Assembly: GCA_965222075.1 (NCBI GenBank)
Contig: OZ244937.1
Span: 3,648,001 to 3,712,000, forward strand
Reading direction: 5' to 3'
Length of the DNA: 64,000 bases
Origin: Candidatus Latescibacterota bacterium
GTDB lineage: Bacteria; Latescibacterota; UBA2968; GCA-2709665
Part shown: piece after piece, positions 2,806-10,696 of the stretch
Layout of the letters: each line of letters begins with the position of its first letter
Numbering within the stretch: position 1 is the stretch's first letter
The notes under the pieces: generated by a model
Database searches by the model: none
What the model saw: the letters and a program-made list of their open reading frames with translations, nothing else
What the model was told of the DNA's origin: nothing
Made by a program: the position numbers and the translations under genes

Positions 2806-3999
2806 TCATGTCCTCCAGAAGGTCGATTCTTTTGTGGGCAGATACGCGATGTTCAGGTGCGGGGTTTCGATGCGTTTGTGACCTTCGTGCAGGCTGTCCA
2901 CGCCGGCGACGACGAGGCCGTTGGTGAGCAGGGTACGTTCAACGGGATAGGCCGGTTTGCCGGTGAGGAACATTTTCTCGATGTTGTTGACCTGGGGAGA
3001 GAAGAAGTTGGCCAGGGTGGTGTAGGCGGGGGGCATGGGGAGATACATCTGGGTGGAGAGGGGATCGTCCCGGCCTTCGAGGCGGGCGGCGAAGTTGAAG
3101 TCCCGCACCAGGCCGTTGAACAGGATCATGGTGGATTTGAGGCCGTCGGTATGTTCGTAGTGGTAGGCAATGGGGTCTTCGACGCGTTTTTTCAGGTCGT
3201 CTGTGGTGGGGAAGGTATTGTTGAAGCCCGGCCGCGAGGGGGTGAGGGTGTGGCTGCGGCAGAGGGCGGCTTCAAAAAGGTCGCGCGACCACACTTCCTT
3301 ATGGTGGGCCTCCCAGAAGTTCTCACCCCGGTAGGCCTGAAGCCATTTGACGCCGGTTTCGCCGCCTTCGCGCCGTTCGACCATACACTGGATCGTTTCT
3401 AAGGCGTGGAAGTCGTAGCTGTCCACACCGCCATAGCCGATACACAGGGCTTCCCGGACGCAGGCGCCCAGGGGCATGTCAATGGGGGGGAGGCGCCAGG
3501 TGACGGGCAGGGAGGAGCCGGCCATGAAGGCGAAGCCCATCTCTTGGGAGATGTCGTACATTTCTTTGGCCCAGTCCCAGTTCCAGGAGAGGTGTTTGTC
3601 GTTGAAAACGGGCGCCGTGCGGCCGGTGGTTCTGTAGACCGCGACGATCTGTTTGAAGAGTTCGTAGCGGGGGTAGAAGCGCTGGCCCTTCTCGTTGGTG
3701 GGGTAGTCGCCGTGCTCGCCGATGAGCAGGACGCCGTGCACGGCCAGGTCGCTGCGGCCCAGAGTGAGGGCGTCGGCGACGGTGGGATAGATGACCATAG
3801 AGGGGAAACGCTTTGCACGGTCCCGGCTCAGGTCGTTGTCCCCAACCTGATCAACGTAGAGGGAGACCAGGTCCATCGGGGGACGGTGGTGCCGGCCATT
3901 CCAGCCGTAGCCTTCTAAGAAGCGGTCAATGAAGTGCTGGGCGTGGGCGTATTTGTGGACAATGGTGGTGATGGCGGCGATTTTTGGGCGTTGTGGCAT
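2806..3999 (-). CDS. Conserved hypothetical protein, distantly Gfo/Idh/MocA-like oxidoreductase (paralog 2)
   Basis: 397 aa; HAQHF, GVLLIGEHGDYP, NDKHLS, AGSSLPVTWR and FHALE motifs. Confidence 0.7.
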   Translation of the reverse strand: MPQRPKIAAITTIVHKYAHAQHFIDRFLEGYGWNGRHHRPPMDLVSLYVDQVGDNDLSRDRAKRFPSMVIYPTVADALTLGRSDLAVHGVLLIGEHGDYPTNEKGQRFYPRYELFKQIVAVYRTTGRTAPVFNDKHLSWNWDWAKEMYDISQEMGFAFMAGSSLPVTWRLPPIDMPLGACVREALCIGYGGVDSYDFHALETIQCMVERREGGETGVKWLQAYRGENFWEAHHKEVWSRDLFEAALCRSHTLTPSRPGFNNTFPTTDDLKKRVEDPIAYHYEHTDGLKSTMILFNGLVRDFNFAARLEGRDDPLSTQMYLPMPPAYTTLANFFSPQVNNIEKMFLTGKPAYPVERTLLTNGLVVAGVDSLHEGHKRIETPHLNIAYLPTKESTFWRT

Positions 4000-4068: not shown

Positions 4069-5070
4069 CTAATCCCACTCAAAGACGACACCGAGGACCT
4101 CTTTCGGGTTGTCCGCGAGCATAGTGTAGACCTCCTGGCACTGTTCCGGCCCGGCCACATGGGTGATGAGGTCTTCTACGGGAAGCTTGCCGTTGCTCAT
4201 CAGGCGCATGACCAGGTTGCGCTCCCGGTGCTTGGCCCAGCGGTAGTAGATGTGGTCCGCTTCCGGGGTTTTGGGCTGGTGAGCGCCCAGGATGCTGACT
4301 TCGCGGAGGTGGACATCGGCGAGAAAGTCCATTTCAACGGTGCCGCGCGCAGAGCCAAGGGCGACGACGCGGCCGGCTGTGCAGGCGAGTTTGACGGCGG
4401 TTGGATAGACAGCAGGCACCCCGGTGGCCTCGATAATGACGTTGGCGCCGTCTTCGACGCAGTGATCGCGCACGGCGGTTGGGAGGTCGTCTACCTCGTT
4501 GGGGTTGAAGCAGATGTCGATGCCCCTGGATGTGGCCTTCTGGCGCCTGAAATCGTCTAAGTCGACGCCGATGACGGGCATGCCGCCGGAGAGGTGGACA
4601 AGGGTCGCGGCGAGCTGTCCGACGATGCCCAGGCCGAAGACGACGACCGATTCTCCCAGTTCGATGCGGGAGACCCGAACGCCGTGCAGGGCGATGGCGC
4701 CCATGACCATGAAGGCCGCGGCCTTAGAGGAGACGTTCCCCGGGACGTTCTGGTAAAACCCTCTGGCGCCGGAGAGGATCGCGTGGCTGGCGTGGTTGCC
4801 CTGGCCGGCGATGCGGTCGCCGGGTTTCAGGTCCGGCACGTCTTTGCCGACGTCCAGCACGGTGCCGGTATTGCAGTAGCCGGTCGCACGCGGAAAGACC
4901 CGCTTCCCGCCCGGCTCACTCCCGTGCGTCCAGTTGTAGATTTCGGTGCCGACGCTGACGGCGGTGTATTCGTTCCGGACCAGGATGCCGTCGTCGGGGA
5001 TCGGACCAAGTTCGAATGCTTCGACTTCGACTCGGCGAACGTCGGGGCAGATAAGTCGTTTTGCTTTCAT
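4069..5070 (-). CDS. MDR (alcohol dehydrogenase-like) oxidoreductase, probably lacking catalytic Zn
   Basis: GroES-like N-terminus and GLGIVG Rossmann motif; VSVGTE and TGY replace the CxxD and GHE Zn ligands. Confidence 0.8.
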   Translation of the reverse strand: MKAKRLICPDVRRVEVEAFELGPIPDDGILVRNEYTAVSVGTEIYNWTHGSEPGGKRVFPRATGYCNTGTVLDVGKDVPDLKPGDRIAGQGNHASHAILSGARGFYQNVPGNVSSKAAAFMVMGAIALHGVRVSRIELGESVVVFGLGIVGQLAATLVHLSGGMPVIGVDLDDFRRQKATSRGIDICFNPNEVDDLPTAVRDHCVEDGANVIIEATGVPAVYPTAVKLACTAGRVVALGSARGTVEMDFLADVHLREVSILGAHQPKTPEADHIYYRWAKHRERNLVMRLMSNGKLPVEDLITHVAGPEQCQEVYTMLADNPKEVLGVVFEWD

Positions 5071-5117: not shown

Positions 5118-6146
5118 TTACTGTCTACGGTCGATGGTTTGCTTGAAAAGCCTGAGAAAATTGCCGCCCCAGACTTTTTGGACCTCCTCTTCGGACAGGC
5201 CGTGGACCAGCATGCTTTGGGTGAGGTGGACGAGCTGGGAGACATCGGGGACAACCGGCGTTGTCCGGCCCATGCCGTCGAAGTCGGAGCCGATCCCTAC
5301 GTGGTCAATGCCCACGAGGTCGGCCACGTAGCAGATGTGTTCGACTAAACGGTCGACCGTGGCCTGTTCGGGGTGGATGAAGGAGGGGAGGAAGGCAATG
5401 CCCATCACGCCGCCGCCACCGGCGAGGGCTTTGATCTGGTCGTCGGTGAGGCAGCGCCAGTGGTGGCAGAGCGAGAAGACGGCCGTGTGGGTCATGGTAA
5501 CCGGCAGGGCAGAGTGCTCGATGACTTCGTAGAAGGCCCTGTCGTTGGTGTGGGCCAGGTCGGTGACCAGGCCCAGGGCGTTGCTCTCTTTCAGGATGTC
5601 CCGCCCAAACGGGGTGAGGCCACCGGCGTTTTTACGCTCCTGTTCACGGTCTTCCGTCGCGCAGGGGCCGAAGGGACTTTTGGTGCCCTGCAAGTAGTCG
5701 TCTCCCCCCTCGCCGTGGGTGAGGCCCACGCAGCGGACGCCGAGGCGGTCGTAGAGCCGGAGGGTGTCAACCTCCCCTTCCAGCCAGCGCCCGGCCCCTT
5801 CGATGGTCATGAGGATGCCGATTTTTCCCGTTTCCCAGGCGCGTTCGACGTCTGTTGAGGATTGGACGAGCAGGAGGTCGTCCGGGTATCTTTCGATGGA
5901 GGCCAGGGTCTGTTCGAGGGTGACCCGGACGTTGGCGGTAGGACCGTTTCCAACCACGAAGAACCCGGCGTTGAAGCCGCCCTCCACCATTCTGGGGATG
6001 TCCATGTGATAGGCCGGGTCCCGCTGCTCCCACCGGATCGGCCTCTCGCCCCGGTGGATGCGCTCGACCGGGGTGTCGTTGTGGCCGTCGATGATCAGGA
6101 GCCTGTCGTGTACCTCCTGAGCTTCTTCGAGGGTGATTTGGGGCAT
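5118..6146 (-). CDS. Membrane (renal-type) dipeptidase, peptidase M19
   Basis: IDGHND, TIEG, DLAH and HVGIGSDFDG motifs. Confidence 0.9.
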   Translation of the reverse strand: MPQITLEEAQEVHDRLLIIDGHNDTPVERIHRGERPIRWEQRDPAYHMDIPRMVEGGFNAGFFVVGNGPTANVRVTLEQTLASIERYPDDLLLVQSSTDVERAWETGKIGILMTIEGAGRWLEGEVDTLRLYDRLGVRCVGLTHGEGGDDYLQGTKSPFGPCATEDREQERKNAGGLTPFGRDILKESNALGLVTDLAHTNDRAFYEVIEHSALPVTMTHTAVFSLCHHWRCLTDDQIKALAGGGGVMGIAFLPSFIHPEQATVDRLVEHICYVADLVGIDHVGIGSDFDGMGRTTPVVPDVSQLVHLTQSMLVHGLSEEEVQKVWGGNFLRLFKQTIDRRQ

Positions 6147-6276: not shown

Positions 6277-7599
6277 TTATGGGGGATCAACGGGTACTTT
6301 CTGGCGTTTCAGGACCAGGGGATCGTAGGTGAATCCTTTGGTTCGTTTTCTGAATTCGGCACGGGCTTTGCGTATGAGGTCGGGTTTCTGGCAGAGATCG
6401 AGGGCGCTGCCGGTGAAGACTTTGGCGGTCTGGAGCATGGCGCGTTCGGCAAAGGGCATGGCGGCCTGGGCAGCGAGGTCCCGGTGGTGGCCGGGGGTGC
6501 CCTTGGCGTAACAGACGATCTGGAAGCGGCCCAGAGGGGCCAGCCAGGAGACGTTGTCTTCGTCTGTGGAGCCCCGCCCCTGCGAGCCGCTGCCTTTAGC
6601 GATGGTGGTGTTGAATTCGCCTTTGAGGCCGAGATTTCGAGCCCGTTTTTTGTCGTCCTGTGTGGGCCGGGGCGGGCCGAAGAGTTCTAAGTTGGCGCGG
6701 ACGGCGCCGCACATAGCGTCGTTGGGCAAGCGGGGGTAAACGGCGGTGATGCGGTGCCATTTCATTTCGGTGTCGGTGGCCTGCGCAGCACCCCGTGCAC
6801 AGGCGGTGAGACGTTCGCGGACGTCGTCGACCTGTTTCCTGTCTTTGCCACGGACGAAGTACCAGACTTTGGCGTAGGCGGGGACGACGTTGGGGGCGTC
6901 TCCGCCGTTTCGGATGACGCAGTGGATGCGGACGTTTTCAGGGACGTGTTCGCGCAGGTAGTTGGCGGCAATGTCGGTGAGCATGACGCCGTCCAAGGCG
7001 CTACGACCCTTGTGGGCGCTGGCGCCGTGGGCCGTGCGCCCGAAGAATTCGTAGACGAGGGAGTCGAGGGACGACCCGCCGAAGTTACTGACGCCCGATG
7101 AGTTGCCCGGGTGCCAGGCGAGGCAGGCGTCTAAGCCGCGGAAGGCTCCGTCGCGGGCCATGTAGACCTTTCCGGCTAAGGTCTCTTCGGCGGGACAGCC
7201 GTAGTAGATGATTTTGCCCTTTGTACCGGTTTTGTAGAGGATCTTTTTTGCGGCAACCGCACCCACGGCCGGGGCAACGCCCAGGAGGTTGTGCCCTCAG
7301 CCGTGTCCCCAGGTGCCTTCGTCGGCCCCACAGTTGGGCAGGGCGTCGTACTCGCCGAGCATGCCTACGGCGGGTTTGCCAAGACCCCAGGTGGCCCGGA
7401 AGGCGGTGGGGATGTTTTTGAAGGGGAATTCGACCTCGAATCCGTGTGAACTCAGGTAATCGGCCAGGCTTTTGGAGGATTGGACTTCACGGAACGGCCG
7501 CTCGGCCCAGGCGTGGATCTGCCGGGCGAGTTCCCGGGCTTTTCCGGATTCGGCGCTGACGGCTTTGTTGACGCGGGCTTTCTTGGTTTTGGGGGTCAC
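6277..7599 (-). CDS. M20D/AbgB-like amidohydrolase with in-frame UGA at codon 101 (candidate selenocysteine; alternatively a nonsense pseudogene)
   Basis: ORFs 7297..7599 and 6277..7266 are in the same frame. Read-through gives EYDALP...WGHG*GHNLLG...GCPAEE...WHP...GRSALD...GSTD, with UGA (7297-7299) at the Cys of the HGCGHN motif. Confidence 0.85.
7259..7294 (-). promoter_or_regulatory. Candidate bacterial SECIS hairpin
   Basis: mRNA after the UGA: GG-GCAC-A-AC-CU-CCUGGGC-[GUU]-GCCCCGG-CC-GU-GG-GUGC. The apical loop starts with GU, 18 nt after the UGA. Confidence 0.5.
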
Positions 7600-7773: not shown

Positions 7774-8862
7774 CTATCCTTTTTGAATGGCTTCGACAAC
7801 AGCGTCTCCGACGGCGGCGGTGGCGGCCCTCCCGCCCAGATCGGCAGTGTGGTTGACAGGATCGGTGAGGGTCCGGGCAACGGCGCGGTCGATGGTTTGT
7901 GCAGCGGCAATGGCGTCGGCATCGTTGTGGCGTTCGCCCAGCCAGGTGAGCATCATGCCAGCGGAGAGGATCTGGGCGACCGGGTTGGCGATGCCCTGTC
8001 CGGCGATGTCGGGGCCGGTGCCGTGGGAGGGCTGGAAGAGGCCGCAGCGGTCGCCCACGTCGGCCGAGGGGGCCATGCCCATGCCGCCAACCGTGGCCGC
8101 GGCGAGGTCGGAGATGATGTCGCCGAACATGTTTTCGGCAACGACGACGTCGTAGAAGGCAGGGCTTCGGAGTTGGTAGACGGTGAAGGCGTCCACGTAG
8201 GCGTAGTCCCGTTCGGTGTCCGGGTAGTCACCGGCGACCCGGTCGTAGACCTGCCGGAAGAAGGCCATGCTTTTGAGGATGTTGGCCTTGTCCACGCAGG
8301 TGACGCGGCGCCTTCCATCCTCCGGCGCGCCCTGCCGCTGCAGGGCGATTTCAAAGGCGTAGCACACGATGCGTTCGGTGCCGGTGCGGGTGATGACCAT
8401 GTTGTCTACGGCGACATCGTCGCCCACGCGCACCCCTGCGCCCCGGGAGGCGTAGAGGCCTTCGGTGTTTTCCCGCATGATGACGTAGTCGATGGGCGGG
8501 TCGCCGGAGAGGAGAGGTGGGACGCCGGGGTATTTTTTGATGGGGCGGATGCCGGCGTAGAGGTCGAGCAGAAAGCGGAGGGTAATCTGGGGGGCGATTT
8601 CGGTGCCGTCGGGGAACCGCACCCCGGGGTCTCCGGCAGAGCCGAAGAGGATTGCGTCGGCCCGCCGACAGGCCTCTAAGGTGGATTCGGGGAGGTCGCT
8701 GCCGGTTTCGGTGTAACAGCGGGCGCCAACGGGGTGTTCGGAGAAGGTGAGCCGGAGGCCGGGGAAGGGCTTTTCCAGAGCGATGAGGACCTTGAGCGCT
8801 TCGGCCACGACTTCGGGGCCGACGCCGTCTCCGGGAAGGACGGCGATGGTGTAGGCTGACAT
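7774..8862 (-). CDS. Isocitrate/isopropylmalate (tartrate-type) beta-decarboxylating dehydrogenase
   Basis: [38 protein letters not shown] and HGTGPDIAG motifs; start taken at MSAYT. Confidence 0.9.
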
Positions 8863-8971
8863 GGGTGTCCTTTCGGTCTGTTTTTGGTTCGTTGAAGAGC
8901 TACGCAACTTCCTGCTGTTCCGCTCCCCTTCTCCCGCTGGCGGAAGAAACAGAATAATCGGCGAATCCCTC

Positions 8972-10696
8972 CTACTGTCCCCCGACGCCTGCTTGTACAT
9001 ACCCCACCAGTTCCCCCACCTCCACATCCACCCGCTCCTCCTTCTCTCGCCACTTCACTTCCACCACCCCCTTCTCCAACCCCCGCGCCCCAACCGTCAC
9101 CCGAATCGGAATTCCGATCAGATCCGCATCGTTGAACTTCACCCCCGCCCGCTCGTCCCGGTCGTCTAACAGCACCTCCACGCCGGCCGCCTCCAGCTCT
9201 CGATAGATCTTCTCGGCCGCCTCCAACTCCCCCTTCGGCGCCTTCCCGCTCAGCACCAGGATATGGACCTGAAATGGCGCCACCGACATCGGCCAGACGA
9301 TCCCCTGCTCGTCGTGGCACTCCTCGATCACACACGCCAGCAGGCGCCCCGTGCCGATACCGTAAGACCCCATCACCAGCGGCCGGGGCCGGCCCGCCTC
9401 GTCTAAAACCGTCGCCCCCAGCCCCTCGCTGTACTTCGTCCCCAGCTTGAAAATATTCCCCACCTCAATCCCCCGCACGCTCCCAAGCGGCGCGCCGCAT
9501 GCGGCGCAGGGCATCCCATCCTCCACCGCCACCAGATCGGCCACCACATCCGGTTCGAAATCCCGCCCCGCGTTCACATTTAAATAGTGATAATCCTCCT
9601 TATTGGCCCCCGACACCAGGTTGTTCGACCCCGATACCCAATCGTCCACCACCAGCAGCACCCCCTCATTCACCCCGATCGGCGATCCGTACCCCGGTTC
9701 CGCTCCGATCGCCCGGATCTCCTCCTCCGTGGCCGGGCGCATCTCGACTGCCTTTACCGCGTTGGCCAGCTTCGTCTCGTTCAACTCATGGTCGCCCCGC
9801 AACAGGGCAAAGATAAACCGCTCTTCCCCCTCGACCCTCCCCACCATAAACACCGCTTTCGCCGTCCGGCGCTCGGGAATCTTCAAAAACGCGGCCAGAT
9901 CCGCAATCGTCGCACACCCGGGCGTCTCCACCTCCTCCAGCGGCATCGGATCGGCCCTCTCCGGATCGGCCTTTGCAAACCCCGCAACCTGCCGGTTGGC
10001 CCGGTAGTCGCAGTTGTCGCACAGCAGCAGCGTATCCTCGCCCGCCGGGTTCAGATACATAAACTCGTGCGCCCCCGTCCCGCCCATTATCCCCGTATCG
10101 CTCTCCACCACAATCACCGACTCCCCCAGCCCCACACGGGCGAAGATATTCTCATACGCTCGGTACATATTGTTGTACGTCTCATCCAGGCTGGCCTCGT
10201 CTAAGTGAAAACTGTACGCGTCCTTCATGGTAAACTCCCGCACCCGGACCAATCCCCCCCGGCTGCGCGGTTCGTCTCTGAACTTCGTCTGAATCTGAAA
10301 AACGCTCAGCGGCACCTGCCGGTAGCTCTGAATCAAATGCCGCACCAGATCGGTCACCACCTCCTCATGCGTCATGGCCAGACACATCTCCCGCTCCGCC
10401 CGGTCGGCCATCCGAAGCATCTCCGGCCCGATCTCATCCCACCGCCCGCTCTCCTGCCAGAGCTCTGCAGGCTGTACGATCGGCATCAGCAGCTCCGTGC
10501 ACCCGATCGCCGCCATCTCCTCCCGAAAAATCGCCTCAATCTTCTGCTTCACCCGCAGCCCCAGCGGCAGATAACTGAAAATTCCCGCCGCCAGCGGCCG
10601 GATCAACCCCGCCCGAAGCGCAAGCCGGTGGCTGACCAGCTCCGCATCGGCGGGCAGCTCGCGAAGCGTCTGCGTAAACAATTGAGAATAGCGCAT
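8972..10696 (-). CDS. proS: Proline--tRNA ligase (bacterial type with editing domain)
   Basis: TKFRDEPR, REFTMKDAYSF, GIEVGNIFKLG, MGSYGIG and GVKFNDADLIGIP motifs. Confidence 0.97.
   Translation of the reverse strand: MRYSQLFTQTLRELPADAELVSHRLALRAGLIRPLAAGIFSYLPLGLRVKQKIEAIFREEMAAIGCTELLMPIVQPAELWQESGRWDEIGPEMLRMADRAEREMCLAMTHEEVVTDLVRHLIQSYRQVPLSVFQIQTKFRDEPRSRGGLVRVREFTMKDAYSFHLDEASLDETYNNMYRAYENIFARVGLGESVIVVESDTGIMGGTGAHEFMYLNPAGEDTLLLCDNCDYRANRQVAGFAKADPERADPMPLEEVETPGCATIADLAAFLKIPERRTAKAVFMVGRVEGEERFIFALLRGDHELNETKLANAVKAVEMRPATEEEIRAIGAEPGYGSPIGVNEGVLLVVDDWVSGSNNLVSGANKEDYHYLNVNAGRDFEPDVVADLVAVEDGMPCAACGAPLGSVRGIEVGNIFKLGTKYSEGLGATVLDEAGRPRPLVMGSYGIGTGRLLACVIEECHDEQGIVWPMSVAPFQVHILVLSGKAPKGELEAAEKIYRELEAAGVEVLLDDRDERAGVKFNDADLIGIPIRVTVGARGLEKGVVEVKWREKEERVDVEVGELVGYVQAGVGGQ

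Follow-up and report, generated by a model that had tools for sequence, protein, structure and literature searches.

A conserved M20D-type amidohydrolase gene of Latescibacterota with a UGA codon, very probably read as selenocysteine, at a predicted metal-ligand position

The window analysed here is the whole stretch of 64,000 nt from positions 3,648,001 to 3,712,000 of contig OZ244937.1 (assembly GCA_965222075.1, Candidatus Latescibacterota bacterium), and our subject is one gene on its minus strand, which encodes an amidohydrolase of the M20D type and is crossed by a single in-frame UGA. From the comparison of this gene with its relatives we consider it very probable that it is a conserved gene for a metallo-amidohydrolase containing selenocysteine (Sec), in which selenium would be inserted at the UGA, in a column held in other homologues by cysteine (Cys).

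The gene, its in-frame UGA and the conservation of both

Two features define the locus:

6277..7599, minus strand: coding sequence of an M20D-type amidohydrolase, 440 codons including one UGA (codon 101), identified by its homologues and a fold model
7297..7299, minus strand (TCA on the plus strand): in-frame UGA, residue 101, in the metal-ligand Cys column of H-G-[C/U]-G-H-N

Translation of the minus strand runs from a GTG at 7599, with a Shine-Dalgarno-like AGAGGA on its 5' side, to a TAA at 6277-6279, and the sole interruption of this 440-codon frame is the TGA at 7297-7299, in the context W-G-H-G-TGA-G-H-N-L-L-G. This bears out the initial annotation, which had taken two open reading frames (ORFs) for one frame split by a single TGA exactly at the Cys of HGCGHN; the remaining family motifs that it described as intact (GEYDALP, GCPAEE, WHP and GSTD) are all found in the translated frame, and the product aligns end to end with homologues of 438-442 aa. 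Public gene callers cut the Sec-form gene at this point, leaving C-terminal pieces of 320-336 aa in protein collections; clusters of these fragments hold up to 217 member sequences, and one fragment bears the NCBI name “peptidase dimerization domain-containing protein,” with no selenoprotein annotation there.

The TGA is shared widely among relatives. A six-frame search found a homologue in 52 of 61 related genomes, with exactly one in-frame TGA in 49 of them and none in 3; across the phylum (168 genomes, of which 59 matched at E <= 1e-100), 55 of the matching genomes have one TGA and 4 have no in-frame stop. The TGA-form genomes of the phylum span three GTDB-coded families at 71-91% protein identity, and the four TGA-free ones comprise one at 70% identity (G059) and three others at 43-47%. 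The TGA column was identical in all 30 loci inspected. On public contigs from metagenome-assembled genomes (MAGs), 28 of 80 loci have TGA and 49 have TGC or TGT; the other 3 failed the motif pattern and were left out, one of them (L077) matching a Cys-form protein with HGCSH. Homologues with TGA in the same column, which had been proposed as a check on the selenoprotein reading, are therefore present in the proportions given above for the relatives and the phylum, and the distant homologues carry TGC or TGT. Taken together, the genomes and the MAG contigs (two overlapping sources) yield 58 TGA loci that reduce to 41 unique coding sequences, none of which contains a second stop or a frameshift.

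Among homologues the UGA column alternates only with Cys, which is the usual counterpart of Sec; all 39 of the aligned full-length metagenome proteins (55-80% identical) have Cys there.

Selenocysteine machinery, the RNA after the UGA and competing explanations

The 5.36-Mb genome of the window has its own Sec machinery, for which the initial annotation had suggested a search: selA (485 bits to Pfam, 567 bits to TIGR00474), selB (369 bits), selD (375 bits, with its own in-frame TGA in SCGG-U-ASKL) and a gene for tRNA-SeC with the anticodon TCA were all found. The corresponding loci, together with four genes in which one in-frame TGA stands at a classical Sec position, are as follows:

G000:C1:3959745-3962940, minus strand: cluster of tRNA-SeC, selD and selB, outside the window
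4481682-4483049: selA, about 0.5 Mb from the selC/selD/selB cluster, outside the window
G000:C1:3959965-3960885, minus strand: SelD, SCGG-U-ASKL, one in-frame TGA
G000:C1:1196506-1197228, plus strand: FdhA-like protein, one in-frame TGA
G000:C1:2003254-2003613, plus strand: Prx, YA-U-SVC, one in-frame TGA
G000:C1:4885623-4885781, minus strand: CMD/AhpD-like protein, CCVY-U-IRSH, one in-frame TGA

A handful of families was searched, and the selenoproteome of this genome is probably larger than the list. TGA terminates 1093 of the 2268 open frames of at least 400 codons, which makes it the commonest stop of the genome, and release factor 2 is present (520.6 bits); TGA is therefore not reassigned. 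Of the 61 relatives' genomes, 57 have a selA match above the cut-off, as do all but one of the 49 genomes with the TGA form, and no selA match was obtained in G059, the only close genome with the Cys form, or in its genus-mate G055.

The RNA downstream of the UGA was compared in 37 unique 66-nt sequences of Sec forms, with positions counted from the U of the UGA. The block UG GGC GUU GCC CCG GCC GNN GGU GCG GU (positions 17-44) is near-invariant, third codon positions included. Codon entropy at conserved residues falls to its gene-wide minimum, 0.29 bits, at codons +5 to +15 after the UGA (the gene mean is 1.21 bits over 293 informative columns), while these codons vary without such restriction in Cys forms, even in loci L129 and L131, which encode the identical peptide GVAPAVGAV. 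The low synonymous variation in Sec forms, against free variation in Cys forms, indicates a constraint on the RNA that is specific to the Sec form. Within or overlapping this block lie two hairpins:

7272..7282, minus strand: hairpin a, GGGC[GUU]GCCC, positions 18-28, the core of the hairpin drawn in the initial annotation
7254..7271, minus strand: hairpin b, CGGCCGU[GGGU]GCGGUUG, positions 29-46, the best candidate for a selenocysteine insertion sequence (SECIS)

All 36 distinct sequences keep the four pairs of hairpin a unchanged, and the loop of this hairpin is GUU in most of the 37 unique sequences, GUA in 3 and ACA in 1. Hairpin b takes the form CGGCCGY[RGGU]GCGGUYG across Sec forms, with its RGGU loop 32 nt after the UGA; 99.6% of its alignment cells are paired (99.7% for the two hairpins together), and it includes changes that keep pairing (U-G/C-G at the closing pair, G-C/G-U/A-U at the second, with one A-C exception). 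In the lineage with the ACA loop (L033/L051, genome G050), positions 22-24 encode Thr for Val, and hairpin b is intact.

We judged both hairpins by constraints given for bacterial SECIS (bSECIS) elements in the portions consulted of PMC13188914: a loop of 3-9 nt, a stem of 4-16 bp, G in the first two loop positions, a spacing of 16-37 nt and a minimum free energy of at most -7.5 kcal/mol. Under a bulge-free test hairpin b satisfies these in 35 of the 37 unique Sec forms; hairpin a has bSECIS geometry, but at -4.6 kcal/mol alone it falls short of the energy criterion. The SECIS hairpins of selD, the FdhA-like gene and Prx in the same genome carry GGU in their apical loops at positions 22-26, and the GUU loop of hairpin a stands at positions 22-24. 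Loop sequence and stability thus favour hairpin b, and spacing favours hairpin a. On these sequence features hairpin b seems the likelier SelB site and hairpin a perhaps a compact spacer. The SECIS may be an unusual arrangement of two hairpins.

The SECIS-like hairpin of the initial annotation survives in part: its core, GGGC[GUU]GCCC, exists and is invariant, with a loop that begins 18 nt after the UGA, while the extended stem is not conserved. The pairs of that longer stem are possible in the window, yet they do not form the minimum-energy fold of RNAfold, and across Sec forms only 87.3% of the cells of the lower stem are paired (of 36 sequences, 30 lack the pair G6-C41 and 16 lack A11-U35). 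Also disfavoured is an alternative 12-bp stem that appears in many RNAfold outputs (G19-C48, loop GCCG), in which position 36, opposite C29, is G in some sequences and A in others. An Rfam scan of 7100-7400 at E values up to 10 matched no bacterial SECIS family; its matches to MEG3_2 and npcTB_6715 were at chance level, far below gathering scores.

Several observations weigh against a Sec-encoding gene with a SECIS of this kind. With so little variation in the block, covariation is not significant: 205 of 500 shuffles score as high as the real alignment. In the window itself, hairpin b has the loop, stem, G and spacing of a bSECIS, and its energy is -7.3 kcal/mol against the threshold of -7.5; among the 37 unique Sec forms, this copy and one other are the two that fail the bulge-free test. 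Some hairpin that passes the constraints occurs in 12 of 48 unique Cys forms, and since these pass and the stretch is G+C-rich and codes for Ala and Gly, the bSECIS test is only moderately specific. The GGU of hairpin b, at positions 37-39, lies farther from the UGA than that of selD, the FdhA-like gene and Prx. The fold proposed by RNAalifold was different again and drew the UGA itself into a pair; it has no two-sided changes and was not adopted. No selA match was obtained in G032, a genome with the TGA form whose assembly is 91% complete and consists of 430 contigs. RNA cover of the gene amounts to one 188-nt contig over 7424-7599 from a sponge metatranscriptome run, which spans the 5' end of the gene only and may be DNA carry-over. 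Finally, the equation of the UGA column with a metal-ligand Cys, set out in the next section, rests on alignment to 3RAM and 7YH4 and on two papers on other M20D members.

These points bear most directly on the possibility that the UGA is read through without Sec, either by a near-cognate tRNA (Trp, Cys or Arg) or with Cys inserted via the Sec pathway, the RNA block then acting as a stimulator. Selenium insertion is itself something that we infer, and the hairpin spacing is unlike that of the other selenoprotein genes of the genome. We nonetheless regard readthrough of this kind as very improbable, given the complete Sec system in 48 of the 49 TGA-form genomes, a column that alternates with Cys and nothing else, a close Cys form (G059) from a genus with no selA match, and an apical loop of the GGU type that resembles those of selD, the FdhA-like gene and Prx.

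Recoding to Sec also has to be set against a split gene, in which translation would stop at the UGA, a second polypeptide would start from the GTG at 7266 and the two pieces would assemble; the window does contain a 329-aa ORF with this GTG start, 11 codons past the TGA. The ten codons after the UGA read G-H-N-L-L-G-V-A-P-A, with the invariant His103, a predicted ligand, among them. They precede any possible internal start, and their amino acids are conserved in all Sec and Cys forms; the UGA must therefore be translated through. In sequences of family f2, moreover, GCA replaces the GTG, so that the internal start is missing, and Sec machinery together with a conserved RNA block after the UGA is better explained by recoding. 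A split gene is accordingly, in our estimate, very improbable.

Selection on the two sides of the UGA was estimated as dN/dS (the ratio of nonsynonymous to synonymous substitution rates) by the method of Nei and Gojobori, from 307 usable pairs of 820. The median is 0.135 for codons 1-99 upstream and 0.088 from codon +17 to the end, so that relaxed selection downstream, which would have spoken for a gene in decay, was not seen. Read support at 7297-7299 had been raised as a further check, and it comes from contigs of three other studies that span the whole gene: 7297-7299 is unchanged in them, and they differ only at 7003, at 7366 and by an insertion behind 7359. A nonsense mutation, a pseudogene or a sequencing or assembly error, for which a single base change from TGC or TGT to TGA would suffice and which would fit the splitting of the gene by public callers into fragments of 320-336 aa, is scarcely credible when the TGA is common to the 55 matching phylum genomes and to those contigs, when purifying selection continues downstream in 41 unique coding sequences with no further stop or frameshift, and when 9-29% protein divergence excludes copies of one erroneous assembly. 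Judged from this comparison, the TGA is neither an error nor the mark of a pseudogene; the alternative can be set aside, and interpretation of the gene as one for a selenoprotein is supported.

Sequencing runs from five studies or more, labelled as several organisms, also contain near-identical DNA of the M20D gene. A small share of the gene's DNA is present in two RNA runs labelled sponge metagenome, a label that hints at a host-associated bacterium.

The enzyme, its predicted metal site and the neighbouring genes

The predicted protein belongs to the M20D amidohydrolases by both sequence and fold. Residues 22-389 match TIGR01891 (“amidohydrolases”) with 196.2 bits against a cut-off of 153.75, and Pfam M20_dimer is matched with 33.1 bits against 21; the Pfam scan of the window protein did not report the Peptidase_M20 catalytic model, which is present in precomputed results for many homologues. 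An AlphaFold2 model built from a 40-sequence alignment forms one two-domain fold across the UGA, with a mean predicted local distance difference test score (pLDDT) of 90.6 and a predicted template modelling score (pTM) of 0.90. Foldseek ranked HmrA (3RAM) first, followed by PM20D2, CsAga, 4EWT, an AbgB-like protein, ILL2 and YxeP; its top matches are all M20D or M20 structures (3RAM, 7YH4, 6SLF, 4EWT, 1XMB and 1YSJ).

HmrA of Staphylococcus aureus is the closest solved structure (E 3e-46, profile E 3.4e-57, template modelling (TM) scores 0.79/0.89) and has the same two-domain architecture and a GH-x-C-GHN motif at the aligned column; it differs in having Cys there and in its 27-28% identity, whereas the Sec form has a UGA and the conserved RNA block. 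Passages of PMC11511702 list HmrA as a peptidase with aminoacylase activity, and the title of a reference there calls it a Met-X carboxydipeptidase. Second closest is human PM20D2 (7YH4, 8ZEI), a cytosolic beta-alanyl-lysine or Xaa-Arg dipeptidase (E 2.8e-33, TM 0.77), whose GHACGHN likewise aligns at the UGA column; this enzyme is eukaryotic, has Cys and is 25% identical. CsAga (6SLF) and the plant ILR1/ILL2 auxin-conjugate amidohydrolases (1XMB) belong to the same M20D subfamily and fold but are distant (profile E 2e-9 to 4e-11, 17-20% identity).

The UGA column aligns in HMMER to the Cys of GHACGHN in both HmrA (3RAM) and PM20D2 (7YH4), and U/C101, H103, E138, E139, H163 and H371 are invariant in the 40 aligned sequences. 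A Cys bridges the two co-catalytic Zn ions of CsAga, an M20D enzyme (PMC11511702, in the passages cited above); in sections of PMC8149794, Cys139 of Brassica ILL2 (BrILL2) coordinates metal, and in PpILR1, with a predicted site of Cys137/His139/Glu172/Glu173/His197, the substitution C137S abolishes hydrolysis. The spacing of residues 101/103/138/139/163 in our protein, C-x-H ... EE ... H, is the same as that of PpILR1 137/139/172/173/197, and the equivalence of the Cys to that of CsAga and ILL2 rests on this common spacing. M20 enzymes outside the D subfamily use Asp as the metal bridge, as does Asp115 of Sapep, which lies between two Mn ions (PMC2937973). The identification of this column in the initial annotation as the Cys ligand of the dimetal site in M20D enzymes thus agrees with the portions of PMC11511702 and PMC8149794 in which Cys ligates or bridges the metals. 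By homology, Sec101 would be a ligand of a hydrolytic metal centre.

The nearest characterised relatives make a dipeptidase or an N-acyl-amino-acid hydrolase the most likely kind of enzyme. The JGI name “aminobenzoyl-glutamate utilization protein B,” that is AbgB, does not fit: the corresponding structure 3IO1 was matched at only E 1.6e-7 with a TM score of 0.56, well behind HmrA and PM20D2, and ten neighbouring ORFs include no second M20 gene and no transporter. In E. coli, AbgB is encoded in abgABT, with abgA and abgT as neighbours.

Around the M20D gene, all on the same strand, lie the following ORFs:

7774-9027, minus strand: isocitrate/isopropylmalate-type dehydrogenase, the upstream neighbour of the M20D gene
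5118..6146, minus strand: M19 membrane dipeptidase (PF01244, 269.4 bits), 130 nt downstream of the M20D gene
4069-5070, minus strand: Zn-ADH-like protein, downstream of the M19 gene
572-1525, 1477-2667 and 2806-3999, minus strand: three ORFs of 317, 396 and 397 aa, downstream of the cluster, with no Pfam match at E <= 1e-5

The row of isocitrate/isopropylmalate-type dehydrogenase, M20D (Sec form), M19 and Zn-ADH-like genes is conserved: of the 58 Sec-form loci, 34 have the M19 gene, 50 the ADH-like gene and 40 the dehydrogenase gene. The 34 loci with the M19 gene, in the same position and on the same strand, are all from family f1 and its closest relatives, and Cys-form loci are without these neighbours, save for one weak M19 match. 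The M20D (Sec form) and M19 genes may be co-transcribed. Because an M19 dipeptidase gene adjoins, and because the nearest characterised relatives of the enzyme are dipeptidases or aminoacylases, the neighbourhood suggests a role in the breakdown of peptides or dipeptides.

Exchange of Sec and Cys, relation to known selenoproteins and significance

In a tree of the genome-derived sequences (41 Sec and 48 Cys rows), Sec forms make up one clade nested within Cys forms, with an SH-like (Shimodaira-Hasegawa-like) support of 98. The single origin of Sec by one change that this tree implied was undone by adding 39 metagenome Cys proteins, whose identity to the window protein reaches 80%: in the enlarged tree (118 rows, after 10 distant outgroup rows were dropped) Sec and Cys forms are interleaved, with at least 3-4 changes. 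Both trees were made with FastTree only. Exchange of Sec and Cys among orthologues is typical of true selenoproteins.

Selenocysteine bound directly to a catalytic metal has precedents, and the comparison shows where this case differs. According to the parts consulted of PMC13188914, Sec is bound directly to Mo/W in formate dehydrogenase alpha and to Ni in [NiFeSe] hydrogenase, and a role for Sec as metal ligand is predicted for about a seventh of known selenoprotein families. The genes of these two enzymes have a UGA and a bSECIS within the coding sequence, as the M20D gene would with its candidate SECIS, but the metals of the two enzymes are redox metals, whereas the M20D site is a hydrolytic one of the Zn/Mn type in peptidase clan MH. 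The view that a Sec metal ligand in a hydrolase is unusual therefore needs to be narrowed: the ligation of metal by Sec is not in itself new, and what stands is the novelty of the hydrolytic site.

Predicted non-redox selenoproteins are described in the same parts of PMC13188914, namely a UshA-like protein, a glutamine amidotransferase related to CTP synthase and the MerB-like lyase SaoL; they have other folds and motifs than M20D, and none is an M20 enzyme, an amidohydrolase or a peptidase. Table 1 of that paper, a catalogue of May 2026 with 119 prokaryotic families or subfamilies, likewise contains no M20 enzyme, amidohydrolase or peptidase, which is in keeping with the novelty that the initial annotation had left to be established against published lists. 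A Sec-containing member of these classes is also unmentioned in the main text of PMC13188914, PMC12013277, PMC13326102 and PMC2398784, a literature that includes the deep-Sep, BSepDB and GOS (PMC2398784) papers and whose supplementary tables may list candidates. Full-text literature searches found no report of a Sec-containing M20 enzyme, amidohydrolase or peptidase, and the protein matched no dedicated selenoprotein model in NCBIfam release 20.0. The selenoprotein family is absent from the current catalogue, and its novelty lies in the class of enzyme and in a metal site that is hydrolytic rather than redox.

In the mechanism that we propose, the UGA at codon 101 would be recoded to Sec by the genome's own SelA, SelB, SelC and SelD, directed by the RNA element that lies 16-46 nt downstream within the coding sequence, and the product would be a full-length, two-domain M20D metallo-amidohydrolase. 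Its selenolate would stand in for the Cys thiolate as ligand of, or bridge between, the one or two metal ions of the active site; with Sec101 adjoining His103, Glu138/Glu139 and His163, selenium would serve as a ligand in a hydrolytic rather than a redox site. The benefit might be a fully deprotonated and softer ligand, or one that resists irreversible oxidation. Which hairpin binds SelB, the ligation of metal by selenium, the substrate and this benefit are points that we infer.

On balance it seems likely that this is the first selenoprotein family among metallopeptidases and amidohydrolases, one with a selenolate at a hydrolytic metal that has become fixed in three families of one class, has been exchanged with Cys repeatedly and is lost where the Sec machinery is lacking. 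Because public gene calls cut the gene in two, the enzyme is missing from functional profiles of these uncultured bacteria. To our knowledge, nearly all known selenoproteins are oxidoreductases, and the metals touched by Sec in the cases known to us (formate dehydrogenase and NiFeSe hydrogenase) do redox chemistry. If the reading proposed here is true, selenium would tune a Lewis-acid metal site (through ligand pKa, softness, metal preference or resistance to oxidation) rather than take part in redox catalysis, and orthologues up to 80% identical would provide a natural Sec/Cys pair for asking what selenium gives to a non-redox metal site.

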